Shown: positions 20,914 through 58,979 of the stretch, in pieces
How positions within the stretch are numbered: position 1 is the stretch's first letter
How the letters are laid out: every line of letters begins with the position of its first letter
Assembly: GCA_018396535.1 (NCBI GenBank)
Contig: JAGTQC010000005.1
Coordinates: forward strand, 1-64,000
DNA: 64,000 nucleotides
Direction of reading: 5' to 3'
DNA from: Candidatus Bathyarchaeota archaeon
Lineage (GTDB): Archaea; Thermoproteota; CALKCG01; B24; DRYS01
Translations under genes and position numbers: made by a program
Notes under the pieces: generated by a model
Told to the model about the DNA's origin: nothing
The model's input: only the letters and a program-made list of their open reading frames with translations
The model's database searches: none

Positions 20914-21872
20914 CTAGCATCACCTATACGTGGGCTACGCAGTATAACGAATAATATGCAGATAGCTACTACCATACTTATGGCGTATTGTTGAATCCTA
21001 GGTATCGGTATGTATCCGCTCATATCGACACCCCGTAGAATCATATTAATGGATAGATACCCTAAGACCATTATGAAGATCTGCCTAACCCGTTTACCGC
21101 TTATCCTTGATAGGATTCTAGCTCCTATTCTAGCTCCTATCGACACTCCTATGATGGAAACCGCAGCTAGAATAGGATGTATATAACCTAGGCTCCAATA
21201 AATCATACTAGTTGTAGCAGATGTAGCTCCTATGATGAAACTACTCGTGGCAGTAGCGATTTTTATAGGTAGATTCATAGCCCAATCCAAGCCTACAACG
21301 TTGAAAGCCCCTCCACCTATACCTAGCATACCAGCGGAAAAACCTGAAAAGAATAGTATACACTCAGCTAGCCACCATCTAACGCCGTAGTACTCTACGA
21401 TACTCTTACATGATGAATCATAGTATTTACCGTATAGCTTGAATACTCTAGTTGTCCAATCTGGAGGCTTAACATTCGTAGGTTCCCCCCTCCCCCTTCT
21501 AACGGTGAGTATCATGGAGATTAGGCTCATAAATCCGAATACTATGTACATTAGCCATGTTAACCCAGATGAGTATACGTAGTGAGCTGTTAAAGCTCCT
21601 ATTACCGCCCCTATTATCGTCGATAATTCGATAACCATACCTATTCTCGCATTCGCTAACCCATTTTTAACGTATACGCTAGCTGCACTACACGATGTAG
21701 CTATGGTGGATATAGCCGATGCTCCGGTTGCATACTTAATCGGTACTCCCAAGAATAGTGTGAGTATAGGTGTAAGTAAAACTCCTCCACCAAGACCTAT
21801 TACAGAACCTATCACTCCTGCTAAAACTCCTACAGAAGCTACTTCTAAGAGTTCTATTAGCGCGGTTATGAT
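20910..21872 (-). CDS. Sulfite exporter TauE/SafE family permease
   Basis: GLGGG..LTP.L and GMLGIGGG repeats, A.ATS.F. The frame is open upstream of the track's GTG (21815) and encodes the first TM helix; putative start ATC 21872 after GGAGGTG. Confidence 0.82.
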   Translation of the reverse strand: MITALIELLEVASVGVLAGVIGSVIGLGGGVLLTPILTLFLGVPIKYATGASAISTIATSCSAASVYVKNGLANARIGMVIELSTIIGAVIGALTAHYVYSSGLTWLMYIVFGFMSLISMILTVRRGRGEPTNVKPPDWTTRVFKLYGKYYDSSCKSIVEYYGVRWWLAECILFFSGFSAGMLGIGGGAFNVVGLDWAMNLPIKIATATSSFIIGATSATTSMIYWSLGYIHPILAAVSIIGVSIGARIGARILSRISGKRVRQIFIMVLGYLSINMILRGVDMSGYIPIPRIQQYAISMVVAICILFVILRSPRIGDAR

Positions 21873-21954
21873 AGCTGTACACCTCCATAGATCTCTACCG
21901 TCAAATCTTCGCTTTGATTAACCTCGACATCGATGTAATAAGCTTTTGTAGTAG

Positions 21955-22341
21955 CTAACGATTACGGTAATACTCTGATTCTATCTTGAAAATCATCTCT
22001 GCTAGATCGTATACTACCGGTATCTTCCAATACTCTCCTCTATAGGATTTTACTAAACCTACTACCCATACTATGAAGAGCAGTAGTGCACATAGAGTGC
22101 TTATCAATCTTGATAGGATAACTCCTATCAATGGTATGATAGATAGCGTTAGGGAGATAACGCCCATAGATAACTCTACTACCACCGCTACTACGAAGAA
22201 TGATATCGATAGGTATGCCCAGTACGATGTGTACCTATACTGAGGCTTCATTACTAGAGCTAAAATCGCGCCTACTATCGTAGCAGCCCATGCTATGAGA
22301 GCCCATACCCTTTCATCTGACGTTAAGCTATCTATACTCAA
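21955..22341 (-). CDS. Small membrane protein (DUF4870-like)
   Basis: 3 TM helices, IP.IG, W..G..K...GE.WKIP.V..LAE. Confidence 0.65.
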   Translation of the reverse strand: MSIDSLTSDERVWALIAWAATIVGAILALVMKPQYRYTSYWAYLSISFFVVAVVVELSMGVISLTLSIIPLIGVILSRLISTLCALLLFIVWVVGLVKSYRGEYWKIPVVYDLAEMIFKIESEYYRNR

Positions 22342-22437
22342 AGCTAGAAGTATGATGGCTTCATGAACAGCTATATTTGGTTTTCTATAAACCAGAAGTT
22401 TTATCTATAGGACTATGTGTTACCGTTATCTAGCTCC

Positions 22438-23589
22438 ATGAGGATTTCTAGTCGTGTATCCTCGATAGAGCCTTCACCTATACGAAAGCTTATGGATAGG
22501 GTAGGCTCTATGAAGGATGTATTAGGGCTACATGTAGGTGAACCAGATTTCGATACACCTATTATCGTTAAGGAGGCAGCTAAGAAGGCTTTAGATGAAG
22601 GAGCGACACACTATACTTTCGCAGCAGGTATACCCGAGCTTAGAAAGGCTATAGCTGAGAAGCTCCTTAGAGAAAATTCTGTGAAGGCAGATCCAGAGGA
22701 TGAGATTACGGTTACTGTAGGTGGTTATGGAGCTTTATTCTCAGCTATACAAGCTCTCGTGGATATAGGTGATGAAGTTCTAATACCTGAACCTGCGTGG
22801 CCTGCTTATAGAGGCTTCGTTAGACTTGCTGGAGGAATACCCGTACCTGTACCGCTTAGACCTCCAGAGTATGAGCTAGATATAGGTGATATCGAAGATA
22901 GAATTACCGAGAAGACTAAGATGATTATAATTAATACTCCGAATAACCCTGTAGGATCCGTATATCCTATAGATACCCTTACTAGTATAGCTAAGCTAGC
23001 TTCTGAGAAGCAGATATACCTACTATCTGATGAGGTTTATGAAAGGATAGTTTTCGATGGTGTATCTCATTTCAGTCCAGCATCGATAGGGGATGCTAGA
23101 GAGTATACCATATCTATCTACTCGTTCTCTAAGACATACGCTATGACTGGTTGGCGTATAGGTTATGTAGTAGCATCTAGGAGTGTTACAAAAGCTATAC
23201 GCGTCGTACACTCTTATATGGCTTCATGTGTAAGCCCAGCTGTACAGATAGCTGCGTTAACTGCTCTTAGAGAGGCTGAGGATTACGTTAAATTCATGGT
23301 GAATAAGTATAGGGAGAGGAGGGATATAGCCTACGATCTTCTATTAGATATACCTAATGTAGATTGTGTTAAACCTAAAGGTACCTTCTATCTATTCCCA
23401 GATTTCAGTCGTATAGAATCCTCTTCTATGAAGCTTTCAGAGAAGCTTCTAGAGGAAGCTAAGGTTGCTACAGTTCCAGGTATAGCTTTCGGTGAAGCTG
23501 GTGAAGGTCATCTTAGAATATCGGTCGCAACTTCATCAGAAACTATAGTGGAAGCTATCGATAGGATTAGACGTATAATCCTAAATTGA
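22438..23589 (+). CDS. Class I/II PLP-dependent aminotransferase (aspartate aminotransferase-like)
   Basis: GEPDFDTP, NTPNNPVG, SDEVY, SFSKTYAMTGWRIG, P.GTFY, VPG.AFG. Confidence 0.9.
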   Translation: MRISSRVSSIEPSPIRKLMDRVGSMKDVLGLHVGEPDFDTPIIVKEAAKKALDEGATHYTFAAGIPELRKAIAEKLLRENSVKADPEDEITVTVGGYGALFSAIQALVDIGDEVLIPEPAWPAYRGFVRLAGGIPVPVPLRPPEYELDIGDIEDRITEKTKMIIINTPNNPVGSVYPIDTLTSIAKLASEKQIYLLSDEVYERIVFDGVSHFSPASIGDAREYTISIYSFSKTYAMTGWRIGYVVASRSVTKAIRVVHSYMASCVSPAVQIAALTALREAEDYVKFMVNKYRERRDIAYDLLLDIPNVDCVKPKGTFYLFPDFSRIESSSMKLSEKLLEEAKVATVPGIAFGEAGEGHLRISVATSSETIVEAIDRIRRIILN

Positions 23590-25809
23590 ACATGGTGTAG
23601 ATCTACCCCTAGGTTTTATGTCGAATTTAGCTTTAATTCTCATATCCAACACTGACTCTAGGATATCTAAGGCTGATCTCCTCGATAATAGCTTATTACC
23701 ATTTCCACAGAATGGATCGTATACGCATCTAGGGCATCCATCATCGCATGAACATTCTGAGAGCATTCTATACGATACTCTATGAGCTCTCTCTAAATTC
23801 CTGTACAATAGTTTAGCTAGCCCAGATCCTCCTGGTGTGGAATCGTACACAATTATATGTCCACTAGGATAGCTTATACCACCAAGATCTGTTAATCCTG
23901 CTCCAGCTACTATTCTAGCTGAATGTATCAATACATGTTCTAATGCGTGTAAGCCTTCTATATCGAATCCATCTCCATACATGGCTACCACGATTTTTGT
24001 CTTATACTTCCAGGATACAGGCTTATCTAAGTATCGTACCGACAAAGGCTGATCCGCATCCTTACCATAGAGGTCATGGATAACATAACCTACAACACTC
24101 CTAGTGATAAAACCATCACCATAGACTATAGGTATACCGTCTACATACCGCTCATCTTCTACATGTATATCATCTACATATGCTTCGTAGAGTGCTTTCG
24201 TATAGAAGCCTAGGTCATAGCCTATCCTTTTAACTCTAGCTATAAGTCTATCTAGATCTAGTTCTATAACTTCGTATACCTCACCCTGGTGGATGTAGAT
24301 AGCGTAAGGGTAGAGATCATGTAAAGCTGCTGGTAGTTCTCTAAACCCGATAATGCCCCTATCAGCATCGTATATCGATACTCTAGGACCCGCATTCCTT
24401 AATCCAGCCTCCTTCAAAACCCTCCATCCATCCTCTGTGAGTTTATAGTATCCATCATCTCTAACAACCCACCCAGCGGTAGTGAGCGTATCTAACAGAT
24501 TCCTCCACTCGATAGGCATTCTCCTATATACTCTTGCACCTTGAGCGATTATTCCTAGGATATGCAGCTTCGATATTTCATCATTATTCGGTTCGAATAC
24601 TATAGGAGTTAGCTCCTGCTCGTAGTATTCGCTCGGTGCTCTTTCGTAGTATGCATCTATAGGGTCGTCTCCGAGTATCATGAATACATAGCCTAAGCCA
24701 CGTCTCCCAGCTCTTCCAGCTCTCTGGAGATACTTTATATAGCTTGGGGGTGGCGCAGCCATGATAACAGCATCTAAACTACCTATGTCTATACCAAGTT
24801 CGAGAGTAGGTGTAGATACCGCTCCATCTATCATACCATACCTAAGCATAGTTTCTACCTTAACCCTCTCCTCCCTCGGTAAGCCAGCTCTATGTACATA
24901 GATATCGACCCCATAACGTCTAGCAAGCTTAGCTACTACCTCAGCCATCTGCTGACTATCGATGAAGGTTAACGTCTTTAATCCGTGAGAAGCTAGTATC
25001 GATATAAGCTTAGAAACTAGCGTCCACCTATTAAGTCTTCCAGCAGATATCATCGCATGGTAGATCGTACCCATCCTTCTCTGTGGGCCGTAGACTACTT
25101 TAACATCTCTCCCAAAGAGCATCTTACCAAACTCATATGGGTTGCCTATGGTTGCGCTGCTAGCTATAAACTGTAGCTTTCCAGCTGTTAGCTTTACCCT
25201 TTCAAGTATACATCTCATATGTGATCCGAAAGCTCCCTCGTAAACATGAGCTTCATCTAAGATTACTAATTCTACATCCCTAACGATCCTTCTGAATCTT
25301 GAAGACCCTGCTAAACCGTAGTGTATCATATCTGGGTTAGTTATGAGGATATGTGGAGGATCTTCAGATATCTTTCTCCGCTCAGATTCAGGTGTATCAC
25401 CGTCGAATACGGCTACTCTAAAACCAGATATGAAACCGAATCGAGCGAATCTACCAAACTGATCTCTAGCGAGAGCTTTAGTAGGGTATATTATGAGAGC
25501 TCTAACCCCATCCTTCAATACCCTATCGATTACCGGTACTATGAATGCTTCAGTTTTACCAGTAGCTGCACCGGAAACTATGAATGTATCATCCCCTCTA
25601 CTTATACATCTATAAGCTTCATACTGGAATCGGTAAAATCTTTCAAATCCGTGAAGTAGTAGAGTTTTAGAAAGGCTTTTGTGCAGATTTACCTCATCTA
25701 CTCTAGGACCATATTCAGGTCTACCCTCTTCCTCTACTCTATAATAGATTATTCTGCATTTATCGTGAAGTCTACGAATCTCCGTATCTATGATGGATAA
25801 TAGATCCAT
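23581..25809 (-). CDS. DEAH-box helicase with C-terminal DUF1998 Zn domain (Hrq1/SftH/MrfA-like)
   Basis: ATGKTE, YPTKALA.DQ, TNPDM, DEAH, SAT, TLELGIDIG, QRAGRAGR, H..EH, YD...GG.G, CSCDDGCPRC...C. Confidence 0.88.
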   Translation of the reverse strand: MDLLSIIDTEIRRLHDKCRIIYYRVEEEGRPEYGPRVDEVNLHKSLSKTLLLHGFERFYRFQYEAYRCISRGDDTFIVSGAATGKTEAFIVPVIDRVLKDGVRALIIYPTKALARDQFGRFARFGFISGFRVAVFDGDTPESERRKISEDPPHILITNPDMIHYGLAGSSRFRRIVRDVELVILDEAHVYEGAFGSHMRCILERVKLTAGKLQFIASSATIGNPYEFGKMLFGRDVKVVYGPQRRMGTIYHAMISAGRLNRWTLVSKLISILASHGLKTLTFIDSQQMAEVVAKLARRYGVDIYVHRAGLPREERVKVETMLRYGMIDGAVSTPTLELGIDIGSLDAVIMAAPPPSYIKYLQRAGRAGRRGLGYVFMILGDDPIDAYYERAPSEYYEQELTPIVFEPNNDEISKLHILGIIAQGARVYRRMPIEWRNLLDTLTTAGWVVRDDGYYKLTEDGWRVLKEAGLRNAGPRVSIYDADRGIIGFRELPAALHDLYPYAIYIHQGEVYEVIELDLDRLIARVKRIGYDLGFYTKALYEAYVDDIHVEDERYVDGIPIVYGDGFITRSVVGYVIHDLYGKDADQPLSVRYLDKPVSWKYKTKIVVAMYGDGFDIEGLHALEHVLIHSARIVAGAGLTDLGGISYPSGHIIVYDSTPGGSGLAKLLYRNLERAHRVSYRMLSECSCDDGCPRCVYDPFCGNGNKLLSRRSALDILESVLDMRIKAKFDIKPRGRSTPCSI

Positions 25810-25931
25810 AACACTCTATTCTCTTCCTTTATACCTATATATTCACTGAGCAGACCTATATCTTAACCTTAGCTTTAAAGGCTTCTAAACTTTATAGATC
25901 CACCACCCTGTATACATTAGGGTAGGGTAAT

Positions 25932-26372
25932 ATGATGCATGGTTTAAAGTTAATAACAATATACAGGCTCTTCTTTAACGATTATAGAGGGTTGGGTAGC
26001 GAATACCCTCCAGATAAGAGTAAGATAATACAGCATATCTTTCGCCATGCTCTTACACAAACGTTTAGTGAATCTTTTTTCAACATGTTCTCGTATTATT
26101 TAGGTGTCAAATGTAAAGGGGATATATTTGATTTCTTCTTAAGAAACCCTGGAAAGGTCTATGATATTATAGCAGATATATATGGTGAGGCTGCCGCTCG
26201 TTATATTTTCCGCTCTATATACATATACATCCTACGGAATACAAGTATAGATGTAGATTTCAATTTATTCTTAGAATATGTAAAACGTGGGGATCATAAT
26301 TGGGTAGACTTCATAGCGGATGTTTGCCGCAGATTCTCTAAGCATCTACCTAAGGATCGTTATAAGAGGTAG
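25932..26372 (+). CDS. Hypothetical protein (small helical domain)
   Basis: 146-aa ORF filling the gap; NP..VY..I..IYGE.AA..I pattern; AT-richer than its neighbours. Confidence 0.5.
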   Translation: MMHGLKLITIYRLFFNDYRGLGSEYPPDKSKIIQHIFRHALTQTFSESFFNMFSYYLGVKCKGDIFDFFLRNPGKVYDIIADIYGEAAARYIFRSIYIYILRNTSIDVDFNLFLEYVKRGDHNWVDFIADVCRRFSKHLPKDRYKR

Positions 26373-29106: not shown

Positions 29107-29145
29107 ATGATATTCATTCATAATTTTGATGTATAGGTGGTCGGT

Positions 29146-29961
29146 ATGGATATACTCTTCCTAGGTACCGGTGCTGCTGAAGGATGGCCTGCCCTATTCT
29201 GTGAATGCGATGCATGCGTGAAAGCTAGGATTTTAGGTGGTAGGAATATACGGAGTAGGAGCTCCATACACATAGATGGTGAGCTCAAGATAGATTGGCC
29301 TCCAGATACCTATCTGCATTTACTGAAGTATAATCTAAACCTAGCTAAGATTAGATACCTATTTATAACGCATAATCATTATGATCACCTACATCCTGAT
29401 GATTTGACGATGAGGCGTGAGCCTTTTGCTCATATGAAGGATGGAGGTAGCATCCATATATACGGTAGTAAGGATACGGTAGATCAAATAGTTAAAGTCG
29501 TCGGTGATCCGTTTAAACTAGGTTTAGATCTACATGTACTCGAACCGTTTGAAACAGTATCTGTTGGGGAATTCAAAGTTACAGCTCTCCCAGCTGATCA
29601 TGCCTCGGATCGTGTATGCCTAATATATCTGATAGAAGCTTGTGGGAAGACCATACTACATGGTTACGATTCAGGCTTCTTCCCAGAGGAGGTATGGCAA
29701 AGGATAAGGGATTGCAAACTTGACATAGTCATCTTAGATTGTACGAATGGTGCTCTTCCATATATAAGATACCACATGGGTTTGGAAGGGGTTATCAAAG
29801 TTAAGGAGCGTATGATTTTAGAAGGTATTGCAGATAAGGATACGATATTTGTAGCAACACACTTCTCTCATAATGGTTTACTAACATACGATGATCTAGT
29901 ATCTACTCTTCTACCGAAGGGTATAGAGACGGCTTATGATGGTTTAACTATAAGAATCTAG
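29146..29961 (+). CDS. Metallo-beta-lactamase fold hydrolase (PhnP-like)
   Basis: FLGTGAAEG.P..FC.C..C, THNHYDH, DSG, THFSH, AYDG. Confidence 0.85.
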   Translation: MDILFLGTGAAEGWPALFCECDACVKARILGGRNIRSRSSIHIDGELKIDWPPDTYLHLLKYNLNLAKIRYLFITHNHYDHLHPDDLTMRREPFAHMKDGGSIHIYGSKDTVDQIVKVVGDPFKLGLDLHVLEPFETVSVGEFKVTALPADHASDRVCLIYLIEACGKTILHGYDSGFFPEEVWQRIRDCKLDIVILDCTNGALPYIRYHMGLEGVIKVKERMILEGIADKDTIFVATHFSHNGLLTYDDLVSTLLPKGIETAYDGLTIRI

Positions 29962-30416
29962 GGCTTTCTACTTCCATACCTATATGCCCAGTATCTATCT
30001 ATCATTCTAAGTATCTTAAGGTTGTATCCTACAAGTTTGCCTAGATCTATCCTCCCACACTCCTCATCTAGGATACCGTGAATAGAAGCTGCACACTTAT
30101 CGTATAGATTCATAACCTCGATTGATGAAGGTATAAGGTAGAGGAAAACACTCCGTTCACTACCTTTATCAGATTTGCTTCCAACTCTCGCTACTATAAC
30201 GCCTTTATCAAGTATTCTAAGCTTATAACTTCCATAATCGATGGTGTAGCCTTCACTTAAAGCTATCGATGATAATAGGTTGTGATCGATTTTATCTTTG
30301 AAGGTCACCCTTACGATACTATAATTGATGATTTCTATTTCACGGATGCCATACGGTAGATCTCCATTATAGAATCCTTCATCAAGTATAGATAGGATAA
30401 CTTCTAGCAGCTTCGT
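29958..30416 (-). CDS. Hypothetical protein
   Basis: The frame is open well upstream of the track's GTG (30308); probable start ACG 30416 (or CTG 30410) after GGGGCGG. No family recognised. Confidence 0.55.
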   Translation of the reverse strand, partial: TKLLEVILSILDEGFYNGDLPYGIREIEIINYSIVRVTFKDKIDHNLLSSIALSEGYTIDYGSYKLRILDKGVIVARVGSKSDKGSERSVFLYLIPSSIEVMNLYDKCAASIHGILDEECGRIDLGKLVGYNLKILRMIDRYWAYRYGSRKP

Positions 30417-33318: not shown

Positions 33319-33642
33319 CTAAACAGATTCTACAGTTATATCTAATATATCTCCTTTCTTTATTGATTCTGATGCTTTAACCTTCTTAGAGAAGTCGCTT
33401 ATCTTCATTAAAAGCCATATATTTGTTTTATCTCCCTTCTTTTTAGTAGTATCTGCTACTGTTTCTATCACACCTAGCTTTGAGACAGTTACTTTAAGTT
33501 TCGTTTTGTCACGTTCTACATCAGATTCTAGTGTAAACTCTTTTCTTCTTTCATCGTATGTGAATAATTCACTAAGGCTAACTTCAGCTCCTGCATTTAC
33601 ATCTTTATCTGCTTTTAAACTGATTTTACCTACTATCGGCAT
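33319..33642 (-). CDS. Small Lys-rich hypothetical protein with an internal tandem duplication
   Basis: ATG 33642 after AGGTGATAGAT; TATA-like TTTATATA upstream; T-rich tract downstream. Confidence 0.7.
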   Translation of the reverse strand: MPIVGKISLKADKDVNAGAEVSLSELFTYDERRKEFTLESDVERDKTKLKVTVSKLGVIETVADTTKKKGDKTNIWLLMKISDFSKKVKASESIKKGDILDITVESV

Positions 33643-33910
33643 ATCTATCACCTATATTTACCTAATATATATTATATATAAATATGCCCCGAATATATAG
33701 GCTTTACCTATGGTTTGCTTACGCTTATAATTTTATATTGCTATTTTGCTGTATGTTTAAGCTAATTGTCTAGCTGTATACATGTATAATTATATCTTTT
33801 ACTTTAATGCGGCTCTGTATTTGTATATAGGTTAGATAAATCGATGTATTATAGAAAGATTTACCTTATACCTCACTAGCTCTTAGATAGGGTTTGGGGG
33901 CATCTATAGG

Positions 33911-42304: not shown

Positions 42305-42592
42305 TCAGCTTTTAGGTCTCGCTATCACTATATCGATGGTGGATACGTTACTCTTTCTTCCGTCTTGACTTATAAGCTCTTGTGTTCCTATACTTATGGA
42401 TTTAATCTCGAGATCCTTAAGGAAGGATCTCCTTATCAATTCGACGACATCTACCGCTTTAGATATGGCTCTACCCCTAGCCTTCACGGTTATACTATCT
42501 GCTCCGCTATTGAATATCGTCATACAAGCGACGACGTAATTCATTACAGGCTTCTTACCTACTAAGACGACGTTCTCCTGAGCTGAAGACAT
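42305..42592 (-). CDS. albA: DNA/RNA-binding protein Alba
   Basis: [27 protein letters not shown]. Confidence 0.95.
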
Positions 42593-42703
42593 ATCCAGCA
42601 CCTTCCCTGCTTATCCCTACGATCTTCGCTGAAACCTAAGATTAAAAGCAACTCCTTATATACTTTTCTATCGTAATCATATAGATCGAGTATACGTGGT
42701 GTC

Positions 42704-45498: not shown

Positions 45499-45575
45499 AG
45501 CGGGGTGGGGTAGCCAGGAAACCCGCCGGGCTCATAACCCGGAGATCCCTGGTTCAAATCCAGGCCCCGCTACCA
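45499..45575 (+). tRNA. Initiator tRNA-Met (CAT), no intron, CCA encoded
   Basis: AGCGGGG/CCCCGCT acceptor stem with A1-U72; anticodon arm CCGGG-CTCATAA-CCCGG with three consecutive G-C pairs; GGTTCAAATCC T-arm; ends ACCA. Confidence 0.96.
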
Positions 45576-49444: not shown

Positions 49445-50461
49445 TTAAGGTTTAACTATAACTTTAATAGGGTTTCTAAGCTCTCTCTTTAGAGCTTGCT
49501 CCACCTTATCTAGCGTTATCCTATGCGTTATCAGCTTATCTACATCTATACTTCTAGAAGCTATCATCGATATAGCTCTACCCATAGAGTATGGGTTTAT
49601 GAAGCTTCCGAGTATAGCTAGTTCGTATCTATACAGGATGTAGGGGTTTACGTACGCCTTATCCTCTTCTGGAGCTACACCGAATACAAGGATCCTTCCT
49701 CCTCGGCCGATTATCCTTAAAGCCTCCTCTAGATATCGAGCTCCACCGACGGCTTCTATTACTACATCTACTCCTAAACCCGCTGTCTCCCTATGTACGA
49801 CCTCCTGTAGATCCTCCTCGATCGGATCTACCACTATATCTGCTCCTAGTTCAGCTGCTAGTTTTCTTCTAGATTCTATAGGCTCTGAGACTATAGTAAG
49901 TACTGCTCCTAAAAGCTTAGCTAGCTGTAGGTGTATGAGACCTATAGGTCCAGCTCCTATTATCGCAGCTGTGAATCCAGGTTTCGGTGATATCCTATCC
50001 CAACCGTGTATGCAGCAGCTAACTGGTTCTACGAGAGCAGCTTCATCGAATGATATGCTACCTGGAATCCTATAGGTTTGGTTAGCCGGTACGCTGATAT
50101 ACTCTGCAAAGGCTCCATCTCTAACGACGCCTATCGGAGTCCACTCTAAGCATAAATGTATTCTTCCAGATCTACAGTATACGCATCGACCGCATACTAT
50201 GGTTGGATCGGCTACTACCCTATCGCCTACAGATATATACTTCGATGCCTCTCTACCTACCTCTACTACTCTACCTGAGAATTCGTGTCCAGGGATTATA
50301 GGGTATCTAGCTATCCCAGCCTTCCCCTCATATATATGTACATCTGTACCGCATACACCGCATGATTCTACTCTAATCAATACATCACATGGGCCTATAC
50401 TAGGTTGGTCTACATCGATTATCCTAAGGGAGAATGGTGCATCTATACGTGCAGCCTTCGT
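49445..50461 (-). CDS. Zinc-dependent (polyol/sorbitol-type) dehydrogenase
   Basis: CGVCGTD, GHEFSG, C..C..C.......C, EP.SC, GAGPIG; probable ACG start at 50461 (the track uses GTG 50470). Confidence 0.9.
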   Translation of the reverse strand, partial: TKAARIDAPFSLRIIDVDQPSIGPCDVLIRVESCGVCGTDVHIYEGKAGIARYPIIPGHEFSGRVVEVGREASKYISVGDRVVADPTIVCGRCVYCRSGRIHLCLEWTPIGVVRDGAFAEYISVPANQTYRIPGSISFDEAALVEPVSCCIHGWDRISPKPGFTAAIIGAGPIGLIHLQLAKLLGAVLTIVSEPIESRRKLAAELGADIVVDPIEEDLQEVVHRETAGLGVDVVIEAVGGARYLEEALRIIGRGGRILVFGVAPEEDKAYVNPYILYRYELAILGSFINPYSMGRAISMIASRSIDVDKLITHRITLDKVEQALKRELRNPIKVIVKP

Positions 50462-50609
50462 AGCTATCACCTCTCTACATGACCCAGTATGGCTAATATA
50501 GGGTATTTTAATCCTGCTATATCCATGAGATCCCTTTATCCTTGAGGTCTACATATATAGGAAAAGGTTATATGCCTATCTGGTTTTCTATTGAAGGACG
50601 GTGATCTAT

Positions 50610-52805
50610 ATGGAATGTAAAGATATACTTAATCTATTGAAATCTATTGAACCTGAAAAACTACCTGAGATACCTGATAGCTTGGATCACGTCGATCACA
50701 TCGTTAAGACCGCTTTAAGAGGCTATCCTGAGTTAGCTGCAGATCATCTCCTAAACCCTGAGCTTAGAGGTGAATTGAGTAGGATTATAGGTGATATAGT
50801 GAGACAGTTGGATCTAGTATTCGAAGGCTCAGCTATACTCGGCGATAAGGATATCGTAGTGAAGAGAGCGCGATCATATCATCTACTATTAGAGATAGCT
50901 TTAAACCTATTTGGATACGAGAGGATTCTAGCTGGTTTCTCGGATTGTGAGGTAGAGGATAGCATCCAGTATATAGAGAATGCGCTCTCCAGATGGGAAT
51001 CCATAGAGAGGAGGTGTAGCGGGGATGGAGCGCCTATAGCTGAAGCTGTTGTTAGATTATTAATAAGCGATATGAAGAAGGTTATGGCTAGTAACCCGAG
51101 AGCTGAGGGTATGGTTGCGGTTATGGGTAGATCTGTTGAAGCTCAGCTTAACCCTGATTGCTGGACTGTAAGCTTCCTTAGAGCTATGAAGAAGGAGATA
51201 GAGAGTAACATCTACTATAAGCTTAGCCGCCTCGGATTTTGTAGGTTTGGTAATGACTACGCCTTAGGTTTGAGATGGCTTCGTAGACTCGGATATGTTC
51301 AGGTATCTACTAACCCAACTTTAGCAGCTATAGCTTACGATGATGATCCATCGCTTTGGAATGTATTCCGCAAGGTATTGAGGGATGAGGTTGCTAAAAC
51401 TAATCCGGAGTGGCTTAGGGATCCAGCTAGGTATAGCGATGAACTAGCTATGAGGGCGACTATGGTTGCATTATGGCCTAACATGGAGGTTTTCAGACCG
51501 ATATTCTTCCTAAGAGAGTATAAGGATGGTATGATAAGCTATCAGTTAAACCCGAATGTAGCTGATAGTGTGGAAGGTAGTTTGAAAGATGCGTTTAAGA
51601 TCTATACATCGGCTCAGGAATACTTCAAGAAGTATGATGCGTATCTATTATGGGGCTACTCTGCTAAGATCGAGCGTGGTAGGCCTAATATAGTCTTTAA
51701 GGTTGCGGGTAGCTCGCCTGCGGCGATAGATATAACTAGGGAGCTTGAATCCCGTGGTATAGGTACGAATAATACTGTAACCTTCACCGTATCTCAGGAG
51801 GCTACTTTGATCATAGCTAAGATAGAGGGTATGGTAGATGCTGTTAAACGCGGTGTAAGGATTACGAGATGCTATGAGACGACTATGGGTGGACGGCTTG
51901 ATGATCATATGCGTGAGTATGTAGCAGCCTACTTCGTTAAGAAGGCTCTAGCTAAGCTTAGGAGTGATGTAGAGAAGGAGGAGGCTTTGAAGGTTCTAGC
52001 TTCTATGGTGAAGGCATCTATAAAGATGGAGCCTGATGGTAGGTGGATAGGTCCTACTGGATGGGGTTATGATCTCGTTGCTTCTACGGTAGATGAGAAG
52101 GTGGAGCTTATATGTTCTAGAGCGTATATACGACCCCTACATAGGGATGGATTTGCAGAATTCCTAGTTAGGTATGGTGTTTTCGAGTGTGGTGTGGAAG
52201 AGGCTAGGAGGATTCTCGAAGAGGCTGAGAGAGCTATAGGTTATGGTGGAATACTAGTTAGTCAAAGAGTTTGGTCTCTATTCTTTAGTAGGGAGAATAA
52301 GCAGAAGTGGATCGGCTACCTAATATCTAAGTATGGGCTTACAGCTGAGCAGGCTGCTGAGATAATGGATGTTATAGATGTACTACCAGCATCTAAGAGG
52401 AAGCCTGATGAAACCCTATTAACTTTAGCGGGTAATAATATGACTAATACAGAGTTTCCGGATCAGCAGATGGCTGTTGTTAAAGCTACTGGTAGCTCAT
52501 CGTTTAGGTTAGAGGATTATGAGTATTCTATACTTAAAAAGCATGATGAGAAGATAATTGAATGGCTTATGAAGTGGGATGACTTCGTAAAGGCGTTCGA
52601 ATTAACCCCTCAGCTTAGGGAGAAGTTCGAAGAGGTTGGTATAGATGTATCTGGGATGGGTGAGAGAGGATTGCAGCCTGAGGAGTGGAGTAGCTTCGGA
52701 TCGACGTATAAGACTATGAGAGGGTTTAGGCAATCTTATCTAACGTTTAGAGAGAAGGTTGTGAATATAGCTAGGGAAGTTGCTAGGGAGCTCTCCATAA
52801 CCTAG
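50610..52805 (+). CDS. Extended transaldolase-family protein (~731 aa)
   Basis: STNPT, NIVFKV (Schiff-base Lys), GI.TN.T..F..SQ, GRLDD; about 210-aa N-terminal extension. Confidence 0.75.
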   Translation: MECKDILNLLKSIEPEKLPEIPDSLDHVDHIVKTALRGYPELAADHLLNPELRGELSRIIGDIVRQLDLVFEGSAILGDKDIVVKRARSYHLLLEIALNLFGYERILAGFSDCEVEDSIQYIENALSRWESIERRCSGDGAPIAEAVVRLLISDMKKVMASNPRAEGMVAVMGRSVEAQLNPDCWTVSFLRAMKKEIESNIYYKLSRLGFCRFGNDYALGLRWLRRLGYVQVSTNPTLAAIAYDDDPSLWNVFRKVLRDEVAKTNPEWLRDPARYSDELAMRATMVALWPNMEVFRPIFFLREYKDGMISYQLNPNVADSVEGSLKDAFKIYTSAQEYFKKYDAYLLWGYSAKIERGRPNIVFKVAGSSPAAIDITRELESRGIGTNNTVTFTVSQEATLIIAKIEGMVDAVKRGVRITRCYETTMGGRLDDHMREYVAAYFVKKALAKLRSDVEKEEALKVLASMVKASIKMEPDGRWIGPTGWGYDLVASTVDEKVELICSRAYIRPLHRDGFAEFLVRYGVFECGVEEARRILEEAERAIGYGGILVSQRVWSLFFSRENKQKWIGYLISKYGLTAEQAAEIMDVIDVLPASKRKPDETLLTLAGNNMTNTEFPDQQMAVVKATGSSSFRLEDYEYSILKKHDEKIIEWLMKWDDFVKAFELTPQLREKFEEVGIDVSGMGERGLQPEEWSSFGSTYKTMRGFRQSYLTFREKVVNIAREVARELSIT

Positions 52806-52867: not shown

Positions 52868-53881
52868 ATGGCTAGACCTAAGGTATACGTAACGAGGAAG
52901 ATCCCCTCACCTGGCTTAGAGATTATAGGTGAATACTGTGATTATGAGTTGTGGCCTGATGTAGAGTATCCTCCACCGAGGAGTGTCCTGATAGAGAAGT
53001 TGAGGGATAAGGATGGACTCCTATGCTTACTAACAGATAGGATAGATGCAGAGGTTATGGATGCCGCGCCTAATCTTAAAGTGATAAGTACGTATAGTGT
53101 AGGCTATGATCATATAGATATAGAGGCTGCGACTAAGAGGGGTATCTACGTTTGCTATACTCCAGGTGTACTTACCAATGCTACAGCTGATTTTACTTGG
53201 GCTTTAATGCTAGCAGCGGCTAGGAGGGTATGTGAAGCTGATAGGTATGTGAGGAGTGGTAGGTGGGATAAGCCTTGGAATCCGTTTATGCTTCTAGGCG
53301 TGGATGTATATGGTAAAACCCTTGGTATAATAGGGTTGGGTAGGATAGGGAGGGCTGTAGCTGAGAGAGCTAGAGGCTTTAATATGAAGGTTATATACTA
53401 CGATCTATATAGGCTTTCTCCGAGTGAGGAGGCTAAGCTTGGGGTTGAGTATAGAAGTTTAGAGGATGTTTTAAGGAGTGCCGACTTCGTAAGCATCCAT
53501 GTACCTCTAAGTAAGGAGACGTATCATCTTATAGGTGAGAGGGAGCTTAGATTGATGAAGCCTTCTGCGATATTAGTTAATACTTCTAGAGGCCCAGTCG
53601 TCGATGAGAAGGCTTTGTATAAGGCTTTGAAGGAGGGTTGGATTAGAGCTGCAGGTATAGATGTATGGGAGCAGGAGCCTACACCTAAAGATAATCCTCT
53701 ACTAACGCTCGATAACATAGTGGTTGCACCGCATATAGCTAGTGCTTCTGAGGAAGCTAGATCTAGTATGGCTGAGATGGCTGCTAGGAATCTTGTAGCG
53801 GTATTGAAGGGTGAGATGCCTCCAGCTTTAGCTAACCCGGATGTATTGAAGATTAGACCTCTTAGTAAAGTTAAGGTATAG
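52868..53881 (+). CDS. gyaR: Glyoxylate reductase / D-2-hydroxyacid dehydrogenase
   Basis: VGYDHID, TPGVLT.ATAD, GLGRIG, NTSRG.VVDE, DV.E.EP, PHIASA. Confidence 0.88.
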   Translation: MARPKVYVTRKIPSPGLEIIGEYCDYELWPDVEYPPPRSVLIEKLRDKDGLLCLLTDRIDAEVMDAAPNLKVISTYSVGYDHIDIEAATKRGIYVCYTPGVLTNATADFTWALMLAAARRVCEADRYVRSGRWDKPWNPFMLLGVDVYGKTLGIIGLGRIGRAVAERARGFNMKVIYYDLYRLSPSEEAKLGVEYRSLEDVLRSADFVSIHVPLSKETYHLIGERELRLMKPSAILVNTSRGPVVDEKALYKALKEGWIRAAGIDVWEQEPTPKDNPLLTLDNIVVAPHIASASEEARSSMAEMAARNLVAVLKGEMPPALANPDVLKIRPLSKVKV

Positions 53882-53891
53882 CTTAGTATCC

Positions 53892-54743
53892 CTATCCCCT
53901 GAATACCCATCTGATATATCTCATACATATCCTAGATCTACACCGTCTCCTTTTCACAGATAGTAGTAGTGCTAGTATGTATATGGATAGCATGGTTACG
54001 CCTATAACCCCGCTTACAGGTAGGTTTGCTACAACCGCTATTATAAATCCTGTTATAGATGATATGAGCGTTATAGATATGGCTTGGTTTCTAAGTTTCT
54101 CGAAGCTATGTGCGAATTCGTAGGCGATTATAGCTGGAGCTGCTATGAATAGCTCTGTGAGTAGTGCTCCTACGACTCTAAGGTTTACTACGGTACATAG
54201 GGATGCTAATATTAGTATGAGGTATCTGTAGAATTTTATATTTAACCCGTATGCCTCCGAAGATTCTGGATCAAATAACGTATACTTGAGTTCACCGTGG
54301 AATAATATTAGTACGATGATTACGATTATACTTACTGATACGAGTTCTATAAGTTCGTAATCCGTTATTCCTAGTACATCCCCTACTAGGAAACGCCAGG
54401 CGGAGGATATGTATGGGCTGCTTAAAGCTATAGCTAGAACAGCTATAGCTGTAGATGATCCGAATATTATACCTACAGACATATCACTCCTCCCCCCTAT
54501 CCTCTCCTCACTGTATCCCGATAGGATCGCGAACAGTATACTCGTAGCTACAGCTCCGATCAACGGGTTGATACCTAGGGTTATAGCTATCGTAGCTCCA
54601 GCTAGAGCTGCGTGAGCTAGAGCTGCACCTAATGCTGATAAACCTCTCAATACCATATGGACGCTAATATTAGCAGAGACTATGCTAGCTATCACGATGG
54701 CTATGAAGGCTTTGACTATTAGTATCGGTATGTTTTCAAGCAT
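53892..54743 (-). CDS. znuB: Zn/Mn ABC transporter permease
   Basis: AL.HAAL.G, FL.GD.LG, FD.E.....G, VVGALL. Confidence 0.85.
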   Translation of the reverse strand: MLENIPILIVKAFIAIVIASIVSANISVHMVLRGLSALGAALAHAALAGATIAITLGINPLIGAVATSILFAILSGYSEERIGGRSDMSVGIIFGSSTAIAVLAIALSSPYISSAWRFLVGDVLGITDYELIELVSVSIIVIIVLILFHGELKYTLFDPESSEAYGLNIKFYRYLILILASLCTVVNLRVVGALLTELFIAAPAIIAYEFAHSFEKLRNQAISITLISSITGFIIAVVANLPVSGVIGVTMLSIYILALLLSVKRRRCRSRICMRYIRWVFRG

Positions 54744-55512
54744 GGGAATCCATACCACCCATAAACTTTACTCCATTCCTCGTATAGAAGTGTACTGGAC
54801 GCATATATGTTTCCTCTAGTAATTTCTCATCTAGTGTATCTTCTACATCACCGTATGCTATCAAGCGTCTATTTAGGAGGAGTATCTTAGTAGCGTATTC
54901 TATGAGTGGTGTTGCATCGTGGAGGACTACTATGATACATACATCTTTACTATACTCTTCGCGTATCATATCGATTATATCCTTTATGGATGGGGAGTCT
55001 ATGGCTGAGAACGGTTCATCTAATAATAGTATTTTAGGTCGTGAAGCTAACGCTCTCGCTATCAGTACCTTCTGTTGTTGCCCACTAGATAGGTGAGAGT
55101 ATGGCTCGCTCCACAGTTTATCTACACCTAATCTACGAGCTATATCTAGAGCTTCCTCCTCATCCTCATATGTAATAATCCTTGGGGGTGTTTTAGAAAG
55201 GAGTCTACCCATAAGGATTACATCTCTAACTAGCATAGGCATCCTAGGATCTATCCTCTCTCTCTGAGGGGTATAGCCTATAAGCCTCCTTATCGATCTA
55301 TCTCTATAAGGATCCTTACCTAGTACTCGAACCGATCCGGATGATGGTTTTAATATCCCCACGATCAACTTTAGTAGCGTAGTCTTCCCAGCTCCATTAG
55401 GACCTAGTACTAGTAGAAGCTCGGGTCTATTTATAGTGAAGCATATATCCGAGAGTATAGGTACACCCTCTATCTCTATATACACGTTTTCTAACTCTAT
55501 AAGAGGCTCCAT
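54736..55512 (-). CDS. znuC: Zn/Mn ABC transporter ATP-binding protein
   Basis: GPNGAGKTT, LSSGQQQK, LLLDEP, LHD. Confidence 0.88.
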   Translation of the reverse strand: MEPLIELENVYIEIEGVPILSDICFTINRPELLLVLGPNGAGKTTLLKLIVGILKPSSGSVRVLGKDPYRDRSIRRLIGYTPQRERIDPRMPMLVRDVILMGRLLSKTPPRIITYEDEEEALDIARRLGVDKLWSEPYSHLSSGQQQKVLIARALASRPKILLLDEPFSAIDSPSIKDIIDMIREEYSKDVCIIVVLHDATPLIEYATKILLLNRRLIAYGDVEDTLDEKLLEETYMRPVHFYTRNGVKFMGGMDSHA

Positions 55513-56495
55513 TAGCTAGCACCTCTATACCTCCTAAATGTTATCGTGAGTATGAGGATGAAGGTAGCTGCGGCCAATAGAGGTATATACTGCATCGAGT
55601 GGTATCCCTCCCTAAAGTATCCAAGTTTTAAATTAGCTAGAGATACTATTAATCCATAGGATACTATCTTAATATACTCTATGTAGCTATCTTCATATCC
55701 GGTTGGGAGAGGGTTGAATACTACGATAGGTGCACCTACATCTTTTGAAATCTCGCTTGCAATCCTACCTTCATCAAGCTCGTACTCTAATAGATGAACG
55801 ATTATAGCATCTGCAGATCTAGCTAACTCTCTAAACTCGGTGATATCCCTCGGTGCTACAGTTCTCTCTCCTCTAACCAGTATACCGGCAATCTCTATAC
55901 CCATATAATCTAGTAGTGGCTCCATATGCGATCCGGCTAGAGCCACCTTCAACCCATCCAATCTATATAGGGATTTACAGTTTTTAATCCATCCGGATAT
56001 AGCAGATATACTTTTATTAAACTGTTCGAATCTATACCTGTAGTATTCCTCCCTCCATGGATCTATAATCGATAGCGTCATATACAATGCTCTAGCTATA
56101 ACTATAGCATTCGATGGGTAGAGCCATACATAGTGTGGATTACCTCCAGGTATATACATGCTACTACTCCAATTCTCCCATCCAAGCTTGATAGCTTGTA
56201 CATCCTCAAAATATCCGAGGAATTCCTCTCTACCAACGCATACGAATATATCTGCATTCTCTAGAAGTAGTCTATCTTTAGGTTTAGGTGCATATACGTG
56301 CGGATCTATGAAGGCTGGTACTATAGTAGCAACTTCTACTAGATCTCCCCCGATATCTCTAGCTATCAAAGCTAGAGGCTCTATGGTAGCTATTATCCTA
56401 ATCCTATCGTTAACTGGTAGTGCTACTATACTAGATAATCCTATCAATAGCGTGAACTGTATTAGGAGTAGGTTTAAAAGTGGTAGTATACGCAT
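55512..56495 (-). CDS. znuA: Zn/Mn ABC transporter substrate-binding protein
   Basis: DPH.Y.P.P.D, NPHYVWL.P; signal peptide and C-terminal TM anchor. Confidence 0.85.
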   Translation of the reverse strand: MRILPLLNLLLIQFTLLIGLSSIVALPVNDRIRIIATIEPLALIARDIGGDLVEVATIVPAFIDPHVYAPKPKDRLLLENADIFVCVGREEFLGYFEDVQAIKLGWENWSSSMYIPGGNPHYVWLYPSNAIVIARALYMTLSIIDPWREEYYRYRFEQFNKSISAISGWIKNCKSLYRLDGLKVALAGSHMEPLLDYMGIEIAGILVRGERTVAPRDITEFRELARSADAIIVHLLEYELDEGRIASEISKDVGAPIVVFNPLPTGYEDSYIEYIKIVSYGLIVSLANLKLGYFREGYHSMQYIPLLAAATFILILTITFRRYRGAS

Positions 56496-56504
56496 ATGAA
56501 CCCC

Positions 56505-56909
56505 CTAATGTTTATGAGGTATTCTAAAACCGCATGGGCAATATTCCGGTGTATCCAATAATCTGCATAGGCATTCTGCAAATTTATCCGATATGAAGAA
56601 ATCTATTCTTGATGATTCTTCATGCGCCTCCTCCTTCGTAAATCCTAGGATATCGTGAAGGAACCGTTCAAGAACTCTATGCTTATGTAGTAGGTTATCT
56701 ACGTAATCTACCCCCTCACTAGTTAATTTAACACCAACTCTAGGCATATATATGATATACCCTTTCAAAACGAGATTCTGAAGTATGGATATAGATGTAG
56801 GAGTTTTTACCTTGAACAATCTTGCGATTCTAGCTGGTTTAACATATTCTGAGGATAACCCTTCTCGATATATAGTAAGAAGGTATCTTGATTCTAGGTG
56901 TGTAAGCAC
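56505..56909 (-). CDS. DtxR/MntR family metal-dependent repressor
   Basis: E..YL..IY, wHTH, LT..G, KHR.LE.FL..ILG, CPCG..IP. Confidence 0.88.
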   Translation of the reverse strand: MLTHLESRYLLTIYREGLSSEYVKPARIARLFKVKTPTSISILQNLVLKGYIIYMPRVGVKLTSEGVDYVDNLLHKHRVLERFLHDILGFTKEEAHEESSRIDFFISDKFAECLCRLLDTPEYCPCGFRIPHKH

Positions 56910-56930
56910 ATGTTAGACTAACTCTAACAT
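56910..56930. promoter_or_regulatory. Palindromic operator, probable DtxR-family binding site
   Basis: ATGTTAGA-ctaac-TCTAACAT, a perfect 8-bp inverted repeat between the TATA box (TTTATATA, 56939-56932 minus) and the GTG start of the repressor-znuACB operon. Confidence 0.7.
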
Positions 56931-57016
56931 ATATATAAACATTACCCAGTTTACAGGGTGGAAAGTTTATTAGGGATTATCTTCCCTATATGAGTAGGCT
57001 AATCGGGGATAGATCG

Positions 57017-57691
57017 ATGAGTCTTACCAGAGTTCAGCGTGATATATTGAGGAAGACTGTTGAAGAAGTCTTTAAGCTTATAGAGGGTAATCCTCGTAGA
57101 TTTAAACAATCCCTAGAACTTATAGTGAATCTAAGAGATATAGATCTGAAAAAGCCTGAAAATAGATTTGTAGAAGTTATATCCCTACCGCATGGATCTG
57201 GTAAGCCTGCTAGGATCTGTTTAATAGCTTCGGGTGCTCTAGCTTCTCAAGCTAAAAATGTAGGAGTGGATCTTATATTAGATCCGAATGATCTAGCATC
57301 GTATGGTAGTGATAAGAGGAAGGGGAAGAAGTTAGCTAGAGAATATGATTTCTTCCTAGCTGAAGCTCAATATATGGGTCTCGTAGGTAGATATCTAGGT
57401 ACATTCCTAGGTCCGAGAGGGAAAATGCCTACACCTATTACACTAACAACATCTCTAGAAGATATTGTAAAATCTCTTAAGAACAGTGTTAGAATTAGGG
57501 TTAGGACAAATCCTCAAGTAAAGTGTAGGATTGGTATTGAAGGTATGACGGTGGATGAGGTAGTTGATAATATAGAATCTGTCTTTTCTAAAATTATAAG
57601 TAGGATGCCTAAAGGTATGGGAAATGTAGATAGTATATATCTGAAGGGTACTATGACCCCTGCTATTAAGGTAAATTTAAGTAAGGTGTGA
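57017..57691 (+). CDS. rpl1: 50S ribosomal protein uL1
   Basis: R.FKQS.EL..NL..IDL..P.NR, LPH, DFFLA, LGPRGKMP, TM.P. Confidence 0.95.
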   Translation: MSLTRVQRDILRKTVEEVFKLIEGNPRRFKQSLELIVNLRDIDLKKPENRFVEVISLPHGSGKPARICLIASGALASQAKNVGVDLILDPNDLASYGSDKRKGKKLAREYDFFLAEAQYMGLVGRYLGTFLGPRGKMPTPITLTTSLEDIVKSLKNSVRIRVRTNPQVKCRIGIEGMTVDEVVDNIESVFSKIISRMPKGMGNVDSIYLKGTMTPAIKVNLSKV

Positions 57692-57694
57692 TAG

Positions 57695-58645
57695 ATGTCT
57701 ACTGTAAAATTGTCTATTAAAAAGGAGAGAAAGATAAAGCAGTTTGAAGAATTGAAATCACTTATTTTAAATTATCCTACCATTATCGTAGCTAGATTAT
57801 ATAGGGTTGATGCTAATTATCTGCATGATCTAAGGATAAAATTTAGGGGAAGAATGATTTTCAAAGTTGCAAAAAATACATTATTTAAGAAAGCTTTAGA
57901 AGAAGTTTATGGTAAAAATATAGAAATAGATAAATTTAGTTCTATATTATTTGGTGAAAACGTATTTATATTCACTAAAGATAACCCTTTTAAAGTATAT
58001 TTAGATTTATATAGGAGTAAGATATTTGTATCCCCATCACCTGGAGATATAGCGCCAGATGATATAGTTATACCTGAAGGGGATACAGGTATACCACCTG
58101 GACCTGCTATAAGTGATTTCAGTCAATTAGGTATCGAAACCAGAATAGTTAAGGGTACTATACATATCGTTCGGAGTAAGGTTCTAGTGCATAAAGGTGA
58201 GAAGATATCGCTAGAAGTTGCTAACCTTTTATCGAAACTCGGTATGAAACCTATAGCTATATGGCTTGATCCTAAAGGAGCTTTAACCGATGGCATCTTC
58301 ATACAGGAGGATGTATTAAAGATAGATCCAGAGATTTATAGAGGTATATTTAGAGACGCGGTATTATCCGCCTTCAATTTAGCAGTTAGCATAGAGTATC
58401 CGACTGTAGAAGTTCTACCTACGCTTATACTAAAAGCTCACAGTATAGCATTATCGTTAGCTTCGTATATAGCCTTACCTATGCCTGAGATGATTATGAA
58501 TCATATAGTGAAAGCTGTAGCGATCGCTAATACCTTATACTCACTAATCGAGGGTAAAACTAAAGAGAAGGAGGAAACTTTAAAAGAGGGAGAAGAACCT
58601 AGTGAAGAAGAGGGGTTGGGAGGTCTAGCCGCCCTCTTCGGATAG
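57695..58645 (+). CDS. rpl10: 50S ribosomal protein uL10 (P0)
   Basis: KNTL, NPF, GDIAP.DI.IP.G.TG..PGP, C-terminal GL.ALFG. Confidence 0.95.
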   Translation: MSTVKLSIKKERKIKQFEELKSLILNYPTIIVARLYRVDANYLHDLRIKFRGRMIFKVAKNTLFKKALEEVYGKNIEIDKFSSILFGENVFIFTKDNPFKVYLDLYRSKIFVSPSPGDIAPDDIVIPEGDTGIPPGPAISDFSQLGIETRIVKGTIHIVRSKVLVHKGEKISLEVANLLSKLGMKPIAIWLDPKGALTDGIFIQEDVLKIDPEIYRGIFRDAVLSAFNLAVSIEYPTVEVLPTLILKAHSIALSLASYIALPMPEMIMNHIVKAVAIANTLYSLIEGKTKEKEETLKEGEEPSEEEGLGGLAALFG

Positions 58646-58658
58646 GAGGTGGTGGAAT

Positions 58659-58979
58659 CTGGAGTATATATATGCAGCTCTACTCTTATACCACTCTGGA
58701 CAGAAGATAGATGAAGAGAATTTAAGGAAAGTATTAAATGCAGCATCGTTAACACCAGATGAAGCTAGACTTAAATCACTAGTAGCAGCTCTTTCAGAAG
58801 TAGATATCGGTGAGGTTATAAAATCTGCAGGGGTATCCATATCTACTCCAACTCAGGTAGCAACTACAGCAAGTAGAGTAGAATCTAAAGCTGCGGAAGC
58901 TAAAGAAGAGAAGAAGGAGAAGGAGAAGGAAGAGGAGAAGGAAGAAGCCTTAGAAGGGTTAGCTGCATTATTCGGTTAA
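58659..58979 (+). CDS. rpl12: 50S ribosomal protein P1 (aL12), CTG start
   Basis: Not in the track. CTG GAG TAT ATA TAT GCA GCT CTA CTC TTA = (M)EYIYAALLL..., 106 aa, ending EEALEGLAALFG. Confidence 0.93.
   Translation: MEYIYAALLLYHSGQKIDEENLRKVLNAASLTPDEARLKSLVAALSEVDIGEVIKSAGVSISTPTQVATTASRVESKAAEAKEEKKEKEKEEEKEEALEGLAALFG

Follow-up and report, generated by a model that had tools for sequence, protein, structure and literature searches.

Can an archaeon make proteins from genes that open with none of the three usual start codons? The question is raised by a window of 64,000 nucleotides (nt), the first 64000 nt of one contig of an uncultured hot-spring Bathyarchaeia archaeon (G000 in what follows), whose metagenome-assembled genome (MAG) measures 1.41 Mb in 14 contigs, is 93% complete and has a G+C content of 41%. 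An earlier note on this DNA had singled out four genes whose best start appeared to be a near-cognate codon, placed behind a Shine-Dalgarno (SD) motif at the distance that is normal in this genome: rpl12, a Zn-dependent dehydrogenase gene, a TauE/SafE-family transporter gene and a hypothetical gene. Here we argue that these are probably genuine genes translated from CTG, ATC or ACG at a position fixed by the SD, with weak starts being tolerated. Near-cognate, SD-led initiation of this kind appears well supported by comparison between genomes and, judging from the same comparisons, the habit is a property of the whole order and not of G000, involving mainly CTG and ATC, with ACG younger and less conserved.

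Archaeal initiation has been described as using AUG, GUG and UUG, and in Sulfolobus solfataricus the factor aIF1 rejects AUU in vitro (PMC4705826). In bacterial genomes with good annotation, ATG, GTG and TTG together account for about 99.95% of annotated starts, and in E. coli AUA, AUC, AUU and CUG give 1-2% of the activity of AUG, with ACG giving less (bioRxiv 10.1101/063800). Our literature search found no paper on the start codons of Bathyarchaeia.

Near-cognate starts at four loci

We compared G000 with two sister genomes (G001 and G002) and with a member of another family of the same order (G011); genome-wide comparisons drew on 1.40 Mb of G001 and 1.19 Mb of G011. Because there is no 16S rRNA gene in G000 or in the examined sequence of G001 and G011, the anti-SD was deduced from the motif enriched upstream of starts: across the G000 genome, GGTG peaks 7-8 nt before the first canonical start (ATG, GTG or TTG). 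TTG is a frequent start, as had been claimed from the window, making up 27-28% of SD-led canonical starts. Fewer SD-led genes begin with GTG in G000 (19/236) than in G001 (33/245), with TTG equal (67 vs 66).

Against this background the coordinates and codons given for the four loci turn out to be exact, and at each of them the near-cognate codon either corresponds to the codon at which orthologues start or recurs unchanged in a relative. Two further properties hold for three loci each. Spacing from the SD is normal for rpl12 (7), TauE (7) and the dehydrogenase (6) and abnormal for the hypothetical gene (3 or 9); a usable canonical start is missing from rpl12, TauE and the hypothetical gene, and the dehydrogenase has an in-frame GTG, at 50470, inside its SD.

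The clearest case is rpl12:

58645-58651, plus strand: SD GGAGGTG of rpl12, overlapping the last base of the rpl10 stop codon, 7 nt before CTG
58659-58979, plus strand: coding sequence of rpl12 (acidic stalk protein P1/L12) read from CTG; Pfam Ribosomal_60s, E 3e-14

The frame that contains this gene (58629-58979, plus strand) holds not a single ATG, GTG or TTG. Read from CTG 58659 the protein would begin (M)EYIYAALLLYHSGQK, and in 29 relatives the alignment with this N-terminus, (M/L)EYIYAALLL, runs from the first residue. At the codon of the CTG both sisters have TTG, with identical SD motif and spacing. Among relatives more generally the residue-1 codon is mostly ATG, in a few cases TTG and in one GTG. 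The first codon is ATC in two complete genomes of another family and ATA in one further genome, so that sporadic near-cognate starts do exist elsewhere, in three genomes of other families.

At the transporter gene the near-cognate codon is shared with a sister:

21880-21886, minus strand: SD GGAGGTG of the TauE/SafE gene, 7 nt before ATC; motif and spacing kept in G002
20910-21872, minus strand: coding sequence of the TauE/SafE-family membrane transporter read from ATC; Pfam TauE, E 1.4e-46

The ATC (21872-21870, minus strand) is followed by a second near-cognate codon, ATA 21869, and the pair ATC-ATA recurs at this point of the alignment in G002; the translated frame shows no conservation upstream of the SD, and G001 lacks an orthologue. 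Position 2 of the Pfam TauE model falls on residue 12 of the ATC reading, which predicts the N-terminus (M)ITALIELLEVASVGVLAGVIGSVIGLGGGVLLTPILTLFLGVPIK, with no Lys or Arg before its K. Canonical codons begin only 19 codons further on, with GTG 21815, which falls within the TauE domain.

The hypothetical gene lacks such an SD:

30428-30421, minus strand: poor SD GGGGCGGT of the hypothetical gene, a mismatched motif whose spacing is 3 or 9 nt instead of 7
29958-30416, minus strand: hypothetical 152-aa protein read from ACG; no Pfam match

Two near-cognate codons, ACG 30416 and CTG 30410 (minus strand), are available here, and the next canonical codon, GTG 30308, lies 36 codons downstream. Both G001 and G002 have ATG at the codon that aligns, gap-free, with ACG 30416, and the orthologue of a further genome (G006), 40% identical, aligns with the hypothetical protein from residue 2.

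The dehydrogenase is the most ambiguous of the four:

50466-50473, minus strand: SD GAGGTGAT of the Zn-dehydrogenase, 6 nt before ACG, holding an in-frame GTG at 50470-50468
49445-50461, minus strand: coding sequence of the Zn-dependent alcohol/sorbitol-type dehydrogenase read from ACG; Pfam ADH_N, ADH_zinc_N

Here the ACG (50461-50459, minus strand) competes with an alternative start, GTG 50470, three codons upstream. The codon aligned with the ACG is ATG in both sisters and TTG in eight order-level orthologues, and K-A-A comes next in 10/10; at the homologous place G002 reads GGTGA, 5 nt, ATG. A spacing of 6 puts the GTG of an SD automatically in frame, as it does in the window genes with ATG at 50610, 33642 and 42592. 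Between the two codons we lean somewhat towards ACG.

A separate observation concerns such SDs in general. At four places in the window (50601-50612, 33640-33651, 42590-42601 and 29137-29148) the longest open reading frame begins at the SD's own GTG, and the SD-led ATG follows three codons later, so that gene calls by longest open reading frame would add three spurious residues at genes of this type.

Might translation simply begin at the nearest canonical codon, GTG 50470, GTG 21815 or GTG 30308, giving proteins that are slightly longer or N-terminally shortened? Such codons exist in frame for the dehydrogenase, the transporter and the hypothetical gene. For the dehydrogenase in particular the cost would be small: GTG 50470 adds just three residues and demands no unusual decoding, and a TATA-like CTATATTA about 25 nt upstream of it makes a leaderless or very short-leader mRNA conceivable. 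However, this GTG is the GTG of the SD, in frame as a matter of course at a spacing of 6, and in every orthologue examined the start is the counterpart of the ACG. At the other loci the proposal fares worse. Starting at GTG 21815 would cut 19 residues from the transporter, including the start of the TauE domain, and starting at GTG 30308 would cut 36 residues whose conservation reaches as far as an orthologue of 40% identity; neither codon has a usable SD (a 4-base match before GTG 21815, none before GTG 30308). The rpl12 frame, with zero canonical codons, would need some other route altogether. We therefore regard initiation at the nearest canonical codon as an unlikely account of these loci. 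Near-cognate initiation positioned by the SD looks to be the best reading of rpl12, TauE and the hypothetical gene and a plausible one for the dehydrogenase ACG.

Near-cognate starts across the genome and its relatives

If near-cognate codons are used as starts, they should be enriched at the proper distance from strong SDs throughout the genome. In an annotation-free strict test we took each 6-mer of GGAGGTGATC in the 5' portion of a probable coding frame and kept frames free of canonical codons upstream, at a spacing of 3-12 and over the next 10 codons or more. Eighteen sites remained at spacing 6-8 in G000, with CTG occurring four times, ATC three times, ACG twice and nine other codons once each. 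CTG, ATC and ACG thus fill 9/18 sites at spacing 6-8, against 7/139 (about 5%) at nine control spacings (binomial estimate ~6e-8). The enrichment of these three codons behind strong SDs in G000 exceeds chance; no enrichment is seen in the same test for the abundant near-cognates ATA, AAG and AGG.

A second test made use of 1201 reciprocal-best pairs of G000 and G001 genes (median identity 80%), considering start columns where the SD is kept in both genomes at spacing 6-8 near the N-terminus. Canonical codons face each other in 104 columns. The remaining columns (G000/G001) are CTG/TTG five times, ATC/ATC three times, and CTG/CTG, ATG/CTG, ATG/ACG, ATC/ATT, ATA/ATG, TTG/ATA and ATA/ATA once each; the internal control zone of this comparison contains essentially no CTG or ATC classes. 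Start codons used by G000 in SD-conserved columns are ATG 69, TTG 30, GTG 8, CTG 6, ATC 4 and ATA 2.

Third, we applied a homology-anchored classifier, which called a near-cognate start where (i) the aligned region ran for 8 codons or more before the first canonical one, (ii) a near-cognate codon lay within a few codons of the alignment start and (iii) an SD match of at least 5 bases was present at spacing 5-9. Near-cognate starts with an SD compare with canonical starts with an SD as follows:

G000 (vs G001): 12 vs 236
G001 (vs G000): 9 vs 245
G000 (vs G011): 7 vs 154
G011 (vs G000): 5 vs 147

These counts are lower bounds, with rpl12 (no canonical codon) and TauE (no G001 orthologue) left out. 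In G000, a sister and a same-order relative alike, near-cognate starts make up 3-5% of SD-led genes and about 1% of genes, and the claim that gene callers confined to ATG, GTG and TTG would miss or shorten genes is borne out by what is a genome-wide habit. For six G000 genes, homology to G011 (50% identity) begins 0-2 codons from the near-cognate codon. Affected G000 genes include rpl12 and MetRS-, FtsY- and aIF6-like genes, all with intact frames; the MetRS-like gene opens with CTG in three members of the genus, G000 and G001 among them, and with ATG in G011 and 'Bathyarchaeota B24'. Clear cases in G011 are aIF1A (CTG), an MCM-like gene (CTG) and a histone-fold gene (ACG). CTG and ATC starts often persist from one genome to another. 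Every ACG faces an ATG in the relative, so ACG starts may be young and short-lived.

Is G000 itself unusually rich in such starts? The tests give different answers: the strict test finds 9 vs 2-3 in the sister and derived changes number about 9 vs 4, whereas the homology-anchored classifier sees no difference (12 vs 9). Near-cognate starts are no more closely coupled to an upstream gene than canonical ones (gap of at most 25 nt in 14/26 vs 44%, no real difference), and the length and strength of the SD do not clearly differ between near-cognate and canonical SD-led starts.

To judge the classifier outside the order we ran it on 80 named loci of ~14 kb each around rpl14, some of them from Bathyarchaeia. 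In the rpl14 neighbourhoods of about 70 archaea outside the order (Desulfurococcales, Acidilobaceae, other Thermoproteota, Euryarchaeota and Asgard) it returned 0 near-cognate starts with an SD vs 659 canonical ones, which shows that the classifier does not generate near-cognate calls by itself. Two other designs were set aside. Start columns of ribosomal proteins (80 archaeal loci, aligned on the G000 start) were unusable, N-terminal extensions giving many false calls of no start, and a lenient cut-off for homology extension (at least 4 codons) picked up mostly conserved SD regions in close relatives. MetRS neighbourhoods, as a baseline of ordinary genes, comprised 3 close relatives only.

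Several irregular starts and frames were noted along the way. In rps5 of Bathyarchaeota SKYB62, of the same genus (~13070, plus strand, of its locus), ATA stands where G000 has ATG, 7 nt after GGGGGTG. An isopropylmalate/homocitrate-synthase-like gene (G000:C1:~93400, plus strand) has a conserved N-terminus for which its frame offers no start, with an ATG in another frame a short way upstream, and is alike in G001; the haloarchaeal gene HVO_1510 poses the same puzzle, a CTG start or ribosomal slippage (PMC8305020). The cbf5 gene (G000:C1:62638-63658, plus strand) is split over two adjacent reading frames, the second without a start, which fits a tRNA-type (bulge-helix-bulge) intron as known for crenarchaeal cbf5; split genes of this sort are part of a class in which homology extends upstream of any start with no SD. 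Finally, a conserved gene at G000:C7:~190042 (plus strand) contains an in-frame TGA where G001 has TGG, so that it is either broken or read through.

The initiation machinery

Why should near-cognate starts be used at all? The earlier note had raised the possibility of relaxed discrimination, with loss of or substitutions in initiation factors to be looked for, alongside a normal initiator tRNA. The second part is correct:

45499-45575, plus strand: initiator tRNA-Met with CAU anticodon, A1:U72, three G:C pairs in the anticodon stem (G29-G31:C39-C41) and encoded CCA

The first part is not upheld. The genomes G000, G001, G002 and G011 encode aIF1, aIF1A, aIF2-beta and aIF2-gamma above Pfam cut-offs (aIF2-alpha and aIF5B lay outside the scope of this search), and aIF1 (SUI1) is present in 39/40 relatives, G000 included. 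The aIF1 of G000 keeps its zinc knuckle and the GK..T, CACGGT and LQGDHR motifs. With these factors present, the aIF1 motifs kept and the initiator tRNA standard, loss or damage of start-codon proofreading finds no support. There are genus-specific oddities in aIF1, namely R-to-V in the EK(R)RxGK basic loop (EKVRFGK) and N for E/D before GI; they do not explain the near-cognate habit, because G011 has the usual residues yet uses such starts.

Nor is there an infC-type arrangement in which a fidelity factor regulates its own weak start: the aIF1 gene of G000 (C1:~287520-287831, plus strand) begins with a plain ATG behind AGGAGGT. The start is also ATG in the 12 other order members inspected (the G001 N-terminus being identical, and G006 and G002 not among them) and TTG in three other genomes. 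In G011 the aIF1A gene (G011:C1:164435-164749, plus strand) has a CTG start directly after TAA, with GGGAGGT about 9 nt upstream, where G000 has ATG. The frame of aIF2-gamma in G011 (C1:668878-669132, minus strand) is 1055 aa long vs about 411-423 aa in G000, G001 and G002, possibly as a result of an intein.

One might still suppose that the start set of the order has truly been widened to CUG, AUC and ACG by changed initiation machinery, with weak starts tuning the expression of rpl12, MetRS and aIF1A. Candidate changes would be the aIF1 basic loop of the genus, a modification of rRNA or of the initiator tRNA, or C-to-U editing of ACG and CUG. We consider this doubtful. The better reading is tolerance of weak starts at well-anchored SDs, perhaps helped by weak selection, with no dedicated system and no broken proofreading; it is preferred over broken proofreading because the initiation factors are intact.

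Under tolerance of weak starts, events would run as follows. The SD of the mRNA (GGAGGUGAU) would pair with the 3' end of 16S rRNA and this pairing would set the P site 6-8 nt downstream of GGUG, where ordinary initiator Met-tRNA (Met-tRNAi, anticodon CAU) could accept one mismatch at CUG, AUC or ACG, the outcome being initiation that is weak but sufficient. Comparison speaks to the position of the start, to the SD and its spacing, to the lack of a usable canonical codon and to a codon that is conserved or replaced by ATG or TTG in relatives; from these we infer that Met-tRNAi decodes the near-cognate codons and that they act as weak starts.

Errors, editing and remaining doubts

Could the near-cognate codons be artefacts of the MAG (base errors, 1-nt indels, minority alleles) or belong to decaying genes? 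Imagine that each were a simple assembly error. G000 is, after all, a MAG in 14 contigs and 93% complete, three of the four sites show ATG or TTG in each sister, and the TauE and hypothetical-gene starts are closely preceded by ATGs in another frame. Random errors, however, would not choose CTG, ATC and ACG exactly 6-8 nt behind an SD, nor should decay strike rpl12 and MetRS-, FtsY- and aIF6-like genes while leaving their frames intact. The ATC of TauE is common to G002, and CTG or ATC is common to independently assembled genomes at several genes, the CTG of MetRS to three. The earlier note had suspected 1-nt indels at two of the four sites; the sister alignments run gap-free across the start, which makes these substitutions and not indels, and TauE keeps its ATC in G002. 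Programmed frameshifting, or an indel, from an upstream out-of-frame ATG fails as well, since that of TauE is GTG in G002 with the frame unchanged and the hypothetical gene aligns without a gap. Artefact or decay is accordingly, to our minds, very improbable.

The earlier note had also named ATG in the sister genomes as evidence against its proposal. At three sites this counts as found. The three changes specific to G000 (rpl12, dehydrogenase, hypothetical gene) are all T-to-C substitutions on the coding strand, with zero indels, and we take them for recent T-to-C changes of a working start, not for errors, because near-cognate codons are conserved at other genes and occur at similar rates in three genomes.

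That all three window changes specific to G000 are T-to-C on the coding strand might recommend a different idea, namely C-to-U editing of the mRNA (ACG to AUG, CUG to UUG, as in plant organelles), which would reverse them; alternatively, an elongator tRNA (Leu, Thr, Ile) might initiate, and a trace of Thr-initiated protein from an ACG start has been reported in E. coli (bioRxiv 10.1101/063800). Editing, however, cannot make ATC or ATA canonical, and these codons are as frequent and better conserved. We know of no description of C-to-U editing in archaeal mRNA. Both ideas strike us as highly unlikely.

Tolerated initiation at near-cognate codons remains the interpretation we favour, and a number of points weigh against it. 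The case for initiation at these codons is comparative throughout. The anti-SD sequence of G000 was deduced, not read from 16S rRNA. Three codons before the ACG of the dehydrogenase stands a GTG in the same frame, and the hypothetical gene, having no proper SD, could either start at ACG or have lost its start not long ago. In SD strength and operon position near-cognate starts resemble canonical ones, so that the sites are marked by the codon alone. The rpl14-neighbourhood control consists of ribosomal-protein genes only, and the Bathyarchaeia loci in it also score 0/71, hence it provides no matched genome-wide baseline.

Significance and comparison with known systems

If our interpretation is right, gene callers confined to ATG, GTG and TTG would systematically miss or shorten roughly 1% of genes in these archaea: rpl12 would go uncalled, TauE would lose 19 residues and the hypothetical protein 36. 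Completeness estimates, protein families and structure predictions would be distorted for a large uncultured group. Initiation of the aIF1/aIF2 type, a relative of the very strict eukaryotic one, would tolerate CUG, AUC and even ACG on essential genes, given an SD, and the stringency of archaeal start-codon selection would become testable with defined natural 5' regions.

How does this compare with what is known elsewhere? The closest bacterial counterparts are the AUU starts of E. coli infC and pcnB and the CTG, ATT, ATC and ATA starts listed in NCBI table 11. They resemble the starts described here in being one base off AUG at a normal SD distance, and in both cases a weak start, presumably read by the initiator tRNA, is missed by gene finders restricted to ATG, GTG and TTG. 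The differences are considerable. G000 has initiation of the aIF1/aIF2 type instead of IF3; near-cognate starts would serve about 1% of genes in G000, as against roughly 0.05% of the starts annotated in bacteria (bioRxiv 10.1101/063800); the genes concerned include core housekeeping ones; and ACG appears to be used though table 11 does not list it. Unlike infC, the fidelity-factor gene aIF1 of G000 has a plain ATG and no autoregulatory arrangement.

Set beside textbook archaea, G000 is conventional in its SD-led operon-internal genes, its frequent UUG and its set of initiation factors. What differs is that CUG, AUC and ACG seem to be added to the working set, CTG (6) being about as common as GTG (8) in SD-conserved G000 starts.

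Haloarchaeal mRNAs mostly lack an SD. In Haloferax volcanii, ribosome profiling found about 30% of putative alternative sites to be near-cognate, and these were set aside as possible false positives (PMC7261190); for one conserved haloarchaeal gene, HVO_1510, a CTG start or slippage has been proposed (PMC8305020). The likeness to our case lies in the suggestion that archaeal ribosomes can initiate at near-cognate codons. Yet where the haloarchaeal examples are alternative or internal sites and a single gene, near-cognate codons in Bathyarchaeia would be the sole available starts of dozens of conserved genes, each tied to an SD.

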